A stretch of 27,915 bases of DNA from a virus (lineage: Duplodnaviria; Heunggongvirae; Uroviricota; Caudoviricetes). Positions 12,001 to 15,000 of this stretch are shown piece after piece (within the stretch, counting starts at the first letter, position 1; every line of letters begins with the position of its first letter). The position numbers were made by a program. The stretch lies in IMG/VR virus record IMGVR_UViG_641736226_000038; one strand, written 5' to 3'.

Positions 12001-15000
12001 GGGGGGGTTACGAAATTTTCGTAACCCCCATGGAAAGAAAAAAGGCGGTGCGGATCAGGTTGTTATTGTGATGACCTATAAACAAGCGCTTCGGGTTGCC
12101 GCTCGTGAATCTAAATCCGTCCGTCGTTCGCTGGTCGATCAACTGGAGTCAATGCAACAGCAACTGCAACAAAAAATCACCTCGAAACATTCGACTAACG
12201 GCCTTGAGGAATTCCGTAAAGCACGGGCGCTGAAAATGACCGTCGATACAATGAAAGACCTTTTCGGCTTCCTCCCCAACCTTGCCCCTGAAGCTAAACA
12301 AGTCGTTGCCGCCAGCCTGGTTAATCCCGTTGTAGGCGCTAACGTAATCCCGCTACCGATGATTAATGAACATTACTATTCGGCGTCAGAAGTTGGAGCA
12401 AAACTCAAAATATCCGCTAACAAGGTTGGTCGCATTGCCAATACCTACATGCTCAAAACCGAACAATACGGGAAATGGTTCATCGACAAATCCCCGTATT
12501 CGGATAAGCAGGTAGAAAGCTTCCGATACAATAATCGGGGAGTACGGAAGATTGAAGAAATCCTGGACGCGGAGAACAACGCAGAATTCGGAACCTGATA
12601 TCCTCCACTCTCCGACGCCGCCAGAATGACGGCGCGGTGGTTAAGCATGAGGCGAAATTTCTGCCGGGCGGTATTTTGTTGAGAGATGAGATACGTCAAC
12701 TTCTCTTTCCGCTTTTTCAAGGCTCCATGCCGTCTGGAGACGAATCCATGAAGACGGAGTTCCCCCCAGGACAGCAGCGAGACGAACAGCCATTTCAGGA
12801 GATATTGTCGCATTACCTGAAACCAGTCGCTGAACAGTGGAAGGCGCGACATCAAGCGCTCTTGCCAGTTCCCTGATTCCAATATTCTGATCTTCCAGAA
12901 TATCAGCAATAATTTCTCCAGGATGAGGGGGGGTAAACATCGCCATTAGTGGTAATCCTCGTAGTTAAACGAAGCGGATCTGGAGTTTTTCCCTGTAGCA
13001 CGGGCGAATTTTTTCAACGTTGCAAATGATGGCCTTATTTACACTCAATGGTTAATTCTTTCCTGTTAAATCCCTGTTCCTTTAAAATGTCTTTATATCC
13101 ATTTTTACATAGGGCATTGGCTTTATCATAGCATACTCCCCATGGTGTAGCGGCACCACAGGCAATGATGTACTGTTCCTTTTCATCTCCGCGATTTATT
13201 TTCGTAGTGGTAGTGCATCCTGATGTTGCCATGCAGAAAATTATCAAATAAAAGAACCTTGCTATGATGTTCATTATCGGATCTCTAATAGGTGCTGCAA
13301 GTGACACTATTCCCATACCTGGAGCAGTTTGTTAGTGTGGCACTTCATATGCCATGCAGATTAGTTCCGGGCGCGAATCTCAGAGCGAACCTGTGAAATG
13401 GAGTGCCCTTTGCCTAGGTTCTCACGAATAGCGTCGAGTGGCGGCGCGGCTGAGTGTATTAACCACGCTTCCATTGCTTTGTCGCGTTCATTCAGTGCAC
13501 GAAGCCCTTCACGAATAACTTCGCTTTCTGAAGCGTATGCACCGGAAGCCACACGGGCGCGCACCATGTCAGCCATTTCGTTGGTTAATGTAATGCTGAA
13601 TTGTTGGGTTGTACGCATGTTAAACCTCACTGAGTAGGATAGAACACTATTCGATGATAGCACGCCACTTGTTGACGACAACACATATCCGGGATTATAT
13701 TCTTCGCACGGTCGAGTTGACCGTCGGGATTCGAACCCCGGATAGAAACCGCGACAGAGACACGCCGCGAGCGTGTTTTTTATTGTCGTATGCACGCGCA
13801 CATCTGAATTATGGTGGGGCGTATAGGGGAGCTGAAAAGCTCGCCGGTTGGTTTCCCGGTAGTTCGAACCCTGTACGTCTCACCACCCGATGATTCGAAC
13901 CTAACGGTGGTGATAGTTTAGAAACCACTCGAGGGCGTCATAATGACAACTCAAGTTTCTGTTGAAACACTCTCCACGATTACTTACAAGCAGATCCCCG
14001 TTATCACTACCGAACTTTTGGCGCACCTTTACGGCACAGAAGCTATTCGTATTCGCCAGAATCACCACGAAAACAAAGGTCGTTTCATTGAGGAAAAACA
14101 CTTCTTCAAACTTGAAGGTGAAACTTTACGTGAGTTCAAGCACAGAGTAGCTTTTAACTACTCTGTGAAAATCGCCCGTAACGTTCGCTCCCTCATCCTC
14201 TGGACAGAACGCGGCGCAGCCCGTCACGCAAAAATGCTCGAAACCGATCGGGCGTGGGAAGTGTTCGAAAAACTGGAAGACTGCTATTTCAGTCAAAAAA
14301 TCCCAGAACAACTTCAGCTTCCAGAATCAACACTATCTATCAACTACCCTCTATCGTGGTTTTCAGAGCACCACCCCTACTCCATGATGAGCTATGTTGA
14401 TCGAAAAACTCTTAACCTGGACGTTTCTGTACTCTTCGACATGCCAAGCCCAACCATGCGTATCCTCAACGAACTACACAGCAAGGGCTATAACGTCGAT
14501 GCGGCTGTCGCTGAATTTAACGCCTTCAAACATCTGACGGAAGAAATGCGCCGCACGCTACAGGATATTTCAAGACTGTCAGATCGAAATTCCCGAAAAG
14601 GCTTCTCGTTAAGCCTGTAACTTCCCCTACCATCCCCGACATCCCGTCGGGGTTTTCATATCTGGAGACAAAAATTTGAAACAGATCGCTTTCTACAGGC
14701 GTTCTGGAAGGCCCGGTGCCTTCCGTGGGTTAAAAGAACGCGTCACCTGGATGATTCAGTCTCGTGGTCGTCCTGTTACTGGCAGTGAAATAGCAGAGAA
14801 ATTTGGTGTTTCACTTTGCGAGTTCAACAAGGTAGCTCGCGGCCTGACAAAGGGCAGTAAGGTTGTGAAAATAAAGGCTTCAGAACCATTCACCACAGAC
14901 ACCGGAATCGTTGATCGCTTTTTCTCCCTCGAATCAAATCCTCGTCGTGACACACCTCGCTCACGCAATGCCGTTCCTCCATTCAGTCGCAGAAGCCGTG

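Follow-up and report, generated by a model that had tools for sequence, protein, structure and literature searches.

Orphan ParD and HigA antitoxin genes around a lipoprotein gene in the accessory region of an Stx2a phage

Antitoxin-like phage genes that act in counter-defence have been demonstrated experimentally in T4 Dmd and pseudo-ToxI. DarG-like enzymes are an established phage orphan-antitoxin counter-defence against DarTG1 (PMC11825919). Closest to the locus treated here is a 2025 article that reports the ParD and HigA of phi346 and phi349 as type II orphan antitoxins whose relevance is unclear (PMC12502783). The 27,915-nt stretch of DNA that we analysed (the window) is an Stx2a phage of the PA2/PA8/VT2phi_272 type, and the Stx2a phages phi346, VT2phi_272, F765 and PA8 match it at 100% over 4.5 kb. 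The orphan ParD/HigA pair is already known from phi346/phi349 (PMC12502783). The article's accessible text does not account for the toxin stubs, the intact modules of sister phages or the third toxin-antitoxin relic, nor does it say where the lipoprotein cassette came from, and the term "lipoprotein" is absent from its main text. The cluster is a recombination scar and not a new kind of module. Our explanation as a whole, which we hold to be likely, is a mosaic moron operon produced by recombination, in which the antitoxins were left after toxin loss and a lipoprotein payload came under the parD promoter.

Gene content and promoters

ORF calling upheld the three co-oriented minus-strand genes that a first-pass annotation of this DNA had placed at 12641-13618; the gaps between them are 86 and 88 nt. 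With the remnants that lie between them and the divergent neighbouring unit, they are arranged as follows:

12641..12946, minus strand: higA, orphan HigA-family HTH antitoxin gene, 101 aa (profile and structure match)
12946..12968, minus strand: higB 3' stub (..LNYEDYH, then stop), carrying the GAGG ribosome-binding site of higA (alignment against GER2)
12965..13032, minus strand: relic of the HTH antitoxin gene of a Gp49/RelE-family toxin-antitoxin pair, last 22 codons and stop (blastn, tblastn)
13035..13274, minus strand: lipoprotein gene, 79 aa, MNII start (signal peptide, lipobox TSG then C, Thr at +2, four further conserved Cys)
13285..13332, minus strand: relic comprising the last ~16 codons of a 121-aa gene found ahead of the lipoprotein gene in P22-like phages (alignment)
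13342..13355, minus strand: parE 5' stub ATGGCATATGAAGT (MAYEV...), stop reached at 13332-13334 (alignment, blastn)
13361..13618, minus strand: parD, orphan ParD-family RHH antitoxin gene, 85 aa (SD GAGG upstream; profiles)
13654..13681, minus strand: P_parD, predicted sigma-70 promoter (consensus scan: -35 TTGTCG, 16-nt spacer, extended -10 TGcTATCAT)
13672..13701, plus strand: predicted IsrK-C4-ant promoter (consensus scan: TTGACG, 18-nt spacer, TATATT)
13708-13781, plus strand: IsrK-like sRNA (Rfam RF01394, 53 bits, above gathering score)
13807-13890, plus strand: C4 antisense RNA (Rfam RF01695, 70.1 bits, above gathering score)
13943-14620, plus strand: ant, ORF6N-domain antirepressor gene, downstream of the IsrK and C4 RNAs (Pfam)

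Profile searches of the three proteins assigned ParD and HigA to families and left the lipoprotein without a Pfam or NCBIfam match. The RHH protein scored 53.4 bits against TIGR02606 (NCBIfam; curated cut-off 46.2) and 32.7 bits against PF03693 (Pfam ParD_antitoxin; cut-off 21), with a weak, below-cut-off match to the CopG-type RHH_1 of Pfam and none to the Arc family in Pfam; of the ParD/Mnt-like identity first proposed for it, the ParD half stands and the Mnt half is not supported. The HTH protein was rightly called HigA-like, at 87.2 bits against TIGR02607 (cut-off 47.7) and with E. coli HigA as its closest solved structure (2ICP, E 5e-27). PADLOC defence models gave weak generic HTH matches for HigA only, and none for ParD or the lipoprotein.

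The description of the middle gene product as a cysteine-containing lipoprotein is borne out by a signal peptide that ends in the lipobox MNIIARFFYLIIFCMATSG, followed by a Cys that is invariant across a 60-member alignment. The mechanical ORF reaches 13316, and the 79 residues are counted from the MNII start. The protein has no toxin-family match and is assigned to phrog_9924, "unknown function"; its family comprises 129 clusters at 50% identity, two members of which match Pfam LPAM_1, and its AF2 model (pLDDT 87.5) has a beta-beta-alpha-beta-beta fold. By the E. coli Lol rule, lipoproteins without Asp at +2 are sorted to the outer membrane, and this destination is predicted here from a Thr at +2 and no Asp. 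The lipoprotein gene is poorer in GC (37%) than parD (52%) or higA (49%).

The claimed absence of a toxin gene holds in the ORF scan, in Pfam and in tblastn. Overlapping and antisense ORFs on both strands of the cluster have no Pfam match, and tblastn of ParE (two alleles), HigB and Gp49 toxins against the whole window returned only a 7-codon tail of higB. A toxin hidden in the cluster was rejected on the Pfam scan of ORFs together with the search using the relatives' toxins.

P_parD, upstream of parD, is the only minus-strand promoter-like site that the consensus scan found within 12400-14100, and no minus-strand terminator was found inside the cluster. Because of these two observations, together with gene orientation, parD, the lipoprotein gene and higA would form a single transcript from P_parD. 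Such a transcript would be antisense to the early-left operon, which suggests that it is probably expressed in the lysogen; we found no report in the literature on expression of the three genes. On the other strand, the Rfam IsrK and C4 RNAs followed by the ORF6N ant gene confirm an sRNA/ant unit transcribed divergently from the RHH gene. The two promoters stand back-to-back with overlapping -35 hexamers (13676-13681 for P_parD, 13672-13677 for IsrK/ant), and a 5+5 palindrome, TGTTGACGACAACA (13671-13684), spans both hexamers. The sequence of the IsrK/ant promoter is conserved beside different toxin-antitoxin cassettes (alignment), and L005, whose cassette differs from the window's, has the palindrome across the -35 hexamers too. 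A ParD operator was sought and rejected, as no direct or inverted repeat of at least 6 nt was found at 13600-13720 and the palindrome is not specific to parD cassettes.

Toxin remnants and intact modules in the same slot

Both gaps that had passed for intergenic in the first-pass annotation contain relics that it overlooked, namely toxin stubs and the 3' parts of two further genes, a third antitoxin gene and the 121-aa gene.

Homology to the parDE cassette stops at 13342 (alignment, blastn), so that the RHH antitoxin gene is complete and only 14 nt are left of the parE adjacent to it downstream. Intact counterparts are found in relatives: ArgO145 has parD-parE divergent from an ant gene, the same as the window's, and in L017 a ParD 94% identical to that of the window is followed by an intact 103-aa ParE starting MAYEV. 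The ParD of ArgO145, which has its ParE, is 87% identical in amino acids to the window's. The RHH domain is identical between the window ParD and those of ArgO145 and L017; in the C-terminal tail, 6 residues differ from L017 and 13 from ArgO145. Compared with the common parDE allele, the window parD shows 13 nonsynonymous codons, none of them before codon 49. Among members of the orphan clade, ParD varies in amino acids solely in its C-terminal toxin-binding tail, the RHH domain being unchanged.

Homology to higBA begins at 12968, 23 nt ahead of the higA ATG (blastn, alignment); here too the antitoxin gene, of the HTH type, is present, and the upstream higB is down to its last 7 codons. In the same slot GER2 carries an intact higB-higA, with a HigB of 92 aa (PF05015, 77.7 bits) and a HigA 99% identical in amino acids to the window's. 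The higB stub keeps the ribosome-binding site of higA in three contexts (the window, L029 and the L017 scar). The adjoining HTH-antitoxin relic (12965-13032) has a 1-nt deletion near 12991, matches L005 at 94% (blastn) and is read by tblastn in two frames, as PSFATLKKFARATGK / KLQIRFV. L029, colinear with 13032-12616 of the window, has the full HTH antitoxin gene paired with its toxin, in the order toxin-HTH-stub-higA.

The stretch between these remnants has another source. Positions 13332-13028 match the P22-like contigs L007 and L008 at 84.6% nucleotide identity (blastn), a match that covers the 3' end of the 121-aa gene, and in L007 the 121-aa ORF ends 10 nt ahead of the lipoprotein start. 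In the P22-like contigs the cassette lies between the tailspike and gp16 genes, the sieA/immI slot, with no adjacent RHH or HTH partner. More distant homologues stand alone in ordinary chromosomal contexts, with no antitoxin-like (RHH/HTH) partner in the three contexts read; a single-protein search of viral contigs with the lipoprotein returned identical copies only. Because of the P22-like cassette match and of these partnerless homologues, we take the lipoprotein to be imported cargo and not a toxin.

Across relatives, parDE, higBA and a Gp49/HTH pair substitute for one another in the slot beside the same IsrK promoter, and the window's own arrangement is found in 41 of 5,426 complete E. coli genomes. 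By descent, the earlier suggestion of orphan antitoxins is right, in that parDE and higBA are intact in sister phages and stubs of both toxins are present in the window.

We propose that the region beside the IsrK/C4-RNA-antirepressor unit is a recombination hotspot at which lambdoid phages swap toxin-antitoxin cassettes. The ancestor would have had parD-parE on the left and, on the right, a higA already without most of higB, preceded by a Gp49/HTH toxin-antitoxin pair. Part of the lipoprotein cassette (a two-gene cassette of the P22-like sieA/immI slot) would have displaced the DNA from parE codon 5 as far as the HTH antitoxin gene, to roughly its codon 80, taking out all toxin genes and sparing parD, higA and short stubs; the probable order of these events is drawn from a handful of intermediates. 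Toxin-less survivors are to be expected, because a toxin retained by a recombinant that lacks the matching antitoxin is lethal to the host. With its RHH domain intact, ParD is probably still an autorepressor, and would in this way set the level of the lipoprotein. The latter would be the payload, with predicted export, lipidation and outer-membrane sorting and perhaps a role in lysogenic conversion or superinfection exclusion. HigA would be a co-transcribed passenger that could still bind the toxin of its 99%-identical cognate partner, if present. It could, however, have been selected for function, which would count against this explanation, since almost every carrier has both ParD and HigA intact and all three contexts preserve the higA ribosome-binding site.

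Other roles for the orphan genes

The first-pass annotation had suggested a Mnt/immI-like repressor, in which case ParD would serve chiefly to regulate transcription at the divergent promoters, repressing IsrK-C4-ant and so contributing to the control of immunity or induction. The overlap of the back-to-back promoters, the palindrome across both -35 hexamers, and an RHH domain that is invariant in the orphan clade next to a variable tail are all consistent with this. However, the ant unit is under its own C4/IsrK RNA control, the immunity unit is of the C4-RNA/IsrK and not the Mnt/Arc type, and the family assignments (no Arc match, RHH_1 below the Pfam cut-off), the lack of longer repeats around the promoters and the occurrence of the palindrome in L005 argue against it as well. 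Nor is a repressor-ant pairing conserved among relatives; higBA or Gp49/HTH replaces parD beside the conserved IsrK promoter, and control of ant therefore cannot depend on ParD. We consider such a role improbable, and the suggestion is not sustained. The same annotation had raised the idea of the lipoprotein as effector of an unusual module; this would be a three-component one, in which the two DNA-binding or antitoxin-like proteins control a toxic lipoprotein. Its position invites this reading, being that of the toxin in both canonical orders (parD-toxin and toxin-higA), but toxin stubs on both sides explain the position, and what arrived from P22-like phages was the gene together with part of an unrelated one upstream of it; in those phages it has no RHH or HTH neighbour. 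With distant homologues that are stand-alone chromosomal lipoproteins and no match to PADLOC or toxin families, a module of this kind is largely refuted and deserves hardly any credence.

The orphans might instead have been retained to neutralise host ParE and HigB or those of rival lambdoid prophages, helping the phage to infect, to lysogenise or to displace residents in strains that use such modules for abortive infection or addiction, an idea already raised for these genes in PMC12502783 and with an orphan antitoxin-like precedent against DarTG1 (PMC11825919). Cognate toxins do exist in the same pool: the 87% parD allele is found in 308 of the 5,426 complete E. coli genomes, with parE present in 26 of the 26 listed, and intact higBA in about 24, with a HigA ~99% identical to the window's. 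Of 42 complete-genome carriers, 41 have the two orphan ORFs undamaged, higA has its own SD, and the predicted sigma-70-like promoter would permit expression straight upon entry. Yet orphan higA and higBA were never found together in one genome; two parD places occur in 10 of 349 genomes, with the orphan allele in at least two of those ten, numbers too small for interpretation. A higA nonsense allele (G10*) persists in L014, L016 and L030, so that the gene is dispensable in some lineages, and cross-neutralisation by ParD is uncertain because the toxin-binding tail is the region most diverged from the common parDE allele. According to PMC12502783, DefenseFinder does not recognise the ParD and HigA genes and no classic type II antitoxin has been verified in such a role. 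The carriers are 99-100% identical, which puts dN/dS after toxin loss beyond reach and allowed only anecdotal polymorphisms to be listed. Survival of toxin-less recombinants accounts for the pattern without any such function, and we regard counter-defence as doubtful. It is also rather unlikely, in our judgement, that orphan ParD and HigA are weapons among sibling Stx/lambdoid prophages, with the parD promoter co-opted for an envelope lipoprotein. If they were, a phage that shed the toxins and kept the antitoxins would be immune to addiction or abortive infection by parDE- and higBA-bearing relatives at the same locus in one E. coli population, and these would be the first classic proteic type II antitoxins to serve phage counter-defence.

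Significance and relation to known systems

The phage type whose accessory region contains the cluster, Stx2a type PA2/PA8, is of clinical importance. Read as a recombination mosaic, the cluster completes a natural series at one locus, from intact parDE, intact higBA and a Gp49/HTH pair with orphan higA to the toxin-less arrangement, a series that shows orphan antitoxins arising through recombination that is survivable only when the toxin is the lost part. The matched toxin and antitoxin pairs allow a direct test of type II antitoxins as counter-defence or anti-addiction factors. The locus also draws attention to small lipoproteins with four cysteines, a widespread and uncharacterised family whose genes are carried by phages from one accessory slot to another.

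The orphans of PMC12502783 are the same genes as those of the window, phi346 being identical over the 4.5 kb. DarG-like enzymes, T4 Dmd and pseudo-ToxI are likewise antitoxin-like phage genes without a toxin; they act on host defence toxin-antitoxin systems, by experiment, whereas the window's ParD and HigA are classic proteic type II antitoxins recognised from sequence. Like lambda Bor, phi80/N15 Cor, T5 Llp and TP-J34 Ltp, the window lipoprotein is a small prophage lipoprotein in an accessory slot, but it resembles none of them in sequence or, convincingly, in fold. With P22 immI (mnt/arc-ant), P1/P7 immI (C4 RNA-icd-ant) and Gifsy-1 IsrK-anrP the locus shares an antirepressor behind C4/IsrK RNAs and a divergent RHH gene; here the RHH protein is of the ParD and not the Arc/Mnt family, and in relatives its gene is swapped for other toxin-antitoxin cassettes. 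Among HigBA modules (GER2; E. coli CFT073, 2ICP; P. vulgaris Rts1, 4MCX), GER2 shares the TAATG stop/start junction and the SD, whereas in the window higB consists of its last 7 codons and higA is without a promoter of its own. The ParDE modules of lambdoid prophages (ArgO145 gp08/gp09, L017) have the same promoter region and the same position divergent from IsrK-C4-ant; in the window, by comparison, parE has been cut down to 14 nt and the tail of ParD has diverged.

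Setting and gene content of the cluster

The 4.5 kb around the cluster match Stx2a-converting phages of the PA2/PA8/VT2phi_272/F765/phi346 type (genus Oslovirus) at 100% identity; records of these phages annotate the three products as 'antitoxin', as 'lipoprotein' or 'hypothetical', and as 'HigA / plasmid antitoxin with HTH domain'. The cluster lies within accessory sequence of the early-left region, antisense to the plus-strand genes around it, with a convergent antirepressor-like gene on one side and the divergent ORF6N antirepressor gene ant (13943-14620, plus strand) on the other.

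13708-13781, plus strand: IsrK (Rfam, 53 bits, above gathering score), upstream of ant
13807-13890, plus strand: C4 antisense RNA (Rfam, 70 bits, above gathering score), upstream of ant
13681-13654, minus strand: P_parD, predicted sigma-70-like promoter (TTGTCG, 16-nt spacer, TGcTATCAT), upstream of parD
13361-13618, minus strand: parD, 85 aa (TIGR02606, 53.4 bits against a cut-off of 46.2; PF03693)
13035-13274, minus strand: lpp, lipoprotein gene, 79 aa, with signal peptide and lipobox
12641-12946, minus strand: higA, 101 aa (TIGR02607, 87.2 bits against a cut-off of 47.7)

The first-pass annotation had located these three ORFs correctly, and its RHH ParD-like and HigA-like identities are borne out by scores above the curated cut-offs; the nearest solved structure to the 101-aa protein is E. 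coli HigA (2ICP). The 79-aa lipoprotein matched no curated family, and PHROGs placed it in phrog_9924 (unknown function). The claim that a toxin gene is absent also held: a Pfam scan of every ORF overlapping or antisense to the cluster gave zero matches, and tblastn with relatives' ParE, HigB and Gp49 toxins found none in the whole 27.9-kb window. The RHH gene is indeed divergent from an sRNA/ant unit, as the IsrK and C4 matches upstream of ant indicate.

Compared with VT2phi_272, the window is short of one G (in a G-run, 11999) and one T (12034), and these two 1-nt losses split the antirepressor-like gene (about 11860-12600, plus strand) into ORFs of 69 aa and 176 aa; a true pseudogene is one explanation, errors in sequencing homopolymers another. 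Downstream of ant (gp7/PNB-1 in the numbering of PMC10810198), a 143-aa protein (14676-15107, plus strand) and the MT-A70 methyltransferase that directly follows it correspond to PNB-2 and M.EcoPA8orf6770P, reported as a two-subunit 16S rRNA methyltransferase tuning Stx prophage induction (PMC10810198).

Intact modules, toxin stubs and the lipoprotein cassette

The key result is that complete toxin-antitoxin (TA) modules occupy the same place in sister phages. ArgO145 encodes a ParD 87% identical to that of the window, followed by a 99-aa ParE (PF05016) and divergent from the same ant gene; on a metagenomic contig (L017), a 94%-identical ParD precedes a 103-aa ParE beginning MAYEV. The 92-aa HigB of GER2 (PF05015, 77.7 bits) overlaps a HigA 99% identical to the window's, and a third TA pair, a Gp49/RelE-family toxin with an HTH antitoxin, is found complete in a prophage of UPEC (L005). 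The IsrK promoter is kept to about 13670 in the parDE, higBA and Gp49/HTH loci, and the cassettes diverge beyond. Different TA cassettes adjoin the IsrK-C4-ant unit in other lambdoid prophages, where parDE and higBA are also found in the nin region.

Breakpoints, placed by pairwise alignments and blastn, delimit the following remnants in the window.

13355-13342, minus strand: parE 5' stub, 14 nt (ATGGCATATGAAGT)
13032-12965, minus strand: relic of the HTH antitoxin of the third (Gp49/RelE-type) pair, final 22 codons, 1 nt deleted
From 12968, minus strand: higB 3' stub, beginning 23 nt ahead of the higA start codon

Homology to parDE spans the promoter and parD and ends at the parE stub, which reads MAYEVPH and then stops. 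Homology to higBA begins at the higB stub, which codes for the final seven HigB residues (LNYEDYH) and holds the GAGG ribosome-binding site of higA. In E. coli JNEC-KY176, the order toxin, HTH antitoxin, higB stub and higA is colinear with window 13032-12616 (95.7%), and higB had therefore presumably been lost from the higA locus before the lipoprotein fragment came in. Just 3' of its intact parDE, L017 carries a 46-nt scar (1208-1253) of the higB-3'/higA-5' junction, the left breakpoint of which is nearly that of the window; this suggests a common truncated-higB ancestor. The differing GC contents of lpp (37%), parD (52%) and higA (49%) agree with a mosaic origin.

The HTH relic has a one-base indel polymorphism at about 12991, where an extra A in most relatives (GA in one) restores its reading frame. 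It also contains a terminator-like hairpin and T-run (12992-13014, plus strand), antisense to the cluster, which might end plus-strand transcripts running on from the convergent antirepressor-like gene, or might be chance; two terminator-like sites were found against 1.4 expected.

Window 13332-13028 is 84.6% identical at the nucleotide level to two P22-like phage contigs (L007 and L008). There, the gene for a 79-aa lipoprotein (82% identical) comes after one for a 121-aa protein, and the two lie between the tailspike gene and gp16, the ejection-protein gene; in P22, this accessory slot is the site of sieA and immI. Because the match also covers the final ~16 codons of that 121-aa gene, the window received a two-gene cassette fragment without its own upstream region. 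A more distant homologue of the lipoprotein adjoins mnt in a Salmonella P22-like phage. The 121-aa protein (L007 3625-3990; L008 2834-3199) has a weak, sub-threshold BamE-domain match (E 0.0016). BamA is the receptor of short-tailed Stx phages, and a link of this protein to the envelope or to BamA is conceivable but unsupported.

An exhaustive HMMER search recovered 129 lipoprotein clusters at 50% identity, nearly all of 70-120 aa. The family alignment has the lipobox Cys and four more conserved Cys (consensus CTT..I..P.G..EY.I.CGA...W..CY..A...CP.GY.TLS...GFNRKEL.I.C). Members have no Pfam domain beyond the lipid-attachment motif, and the family, with its GFNRKEL motif, is without a Pfam or NCBIfam model or a structural neighbour; this widespread four-cysteine group is a candidate for a new domain family. 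In the three genomic contexts read, in Stutzerimonas/Pseudomonas-type genomes, distant homologues stand alone among housekeeping genes and lack an RHH or HTH partner. Together with the P22-like cassette origin, this marks the lipoprotein as mobile cargo and not, as had been proposed, the TA-like effector of an unusual module; for such imported cargo with stand-alone homologues, a role as toxin is effectively excluded.

Predicted expression, distribution and possible roles

P_parD is the only minus-strand sigma-70-like site within 12400-14100, the cluster contains no minus-strand terminator, and the promoter of higA has gone together with higB. Given a single promoter, no internal terminator, and lpp and higA without promoters of their own, one transcript is the simplest model: P_parD would drive parD-lpp-higA in antisense orientation to the early-left operon, with ParD as a putative autorepressor and the lipoprotein as the presumed payload.

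Among 5426 complete E. coli genomes, the window's arrangement occurs in 41, all 41 with the orphan parD allele at 99% identity or more; parE was annotated in none of the four such genomes listed. The 87% parD allele is found in 308, with parE annotated under the match in 26 of the 26 listed. Intact higBA is present in about 24 genomes, and orphan higA and higBA coincide in none of the 5426. In parD of the orphan clade, amino-acid changes are confined to the C-terminal tail, which binds the toxin, and the RHH domain has none. Three records with the window's gene arrangement (L014, L016, L030) have higA codon 10 changed to a stop (G10*, G-to-T at the equivalent of window 12919), consistent with weak constraint on HigA; the allele is seen in 1/42 complete-genome carriers, and gene callers then begin at an internal codon and give a 90-aa protein.

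The stubs of parE and higB, the relic of the third TA pair, the cassette donor and the intermediates explain the cluster, most probably, as a product of ordinary modular recombination. At a hotspot for TA cassettes, the only viable recombinants would be those that lose the toxin or keep the matching antitoxin, and the presence of orphan antitoxins would then be explained without a special function. It is plausible, though less likely, that the orphan ParD and HigA serve counter-defence or anti-addiction, as toxins that match them are present among the same pool of prophages and the two orphans are as a rule intact. The phage orphan antitoxins proven in this role belong to other systems, DarTG1 among them (PMC11825919), and the reporters of the present orphans left the matter equally open (PMC12502783). 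That ParD acts like Mnt, as a repressor at the divergent ant promoter, is improbable. The geometry fits, with the -35 hexamers of the divergent promoters back-to-back and overlapping and a 5+5 palindrome (TGTTGACGACAACA, 13671-13684) centred on them, but unrelated TA cassettes can occupy the same slot, and L005 conserves the palindrome beside a different one, so that the palindrome may be part of the IsrK/ant unit and not a ParD site.

Relation to known systems

The cluster lends itself directly to an experiment on whether sibling prophages use antitoxins as counter-defence against each other, and it brings up a lipoprotein family without prior characterisation. GenBank records already annotate its genes, and the orphan ParD/HigA pair has a published description for 100%-identical phages (PMC12502783). 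The remnants of the two toxin genes and of a third TA pair are new, as are the donor setting of the lipoprotein cassette and the intermediates that form a series. Mosaic lambdoid phages are well known to carry orphan antitoxins and moron lipoproteins, and the IsrK and C4 tandem ahead of an ORF6N antirepressor gene is a control unit of the P1/P7-immI or Gifsy-1-IsrK type, here in an Stx2a phage.
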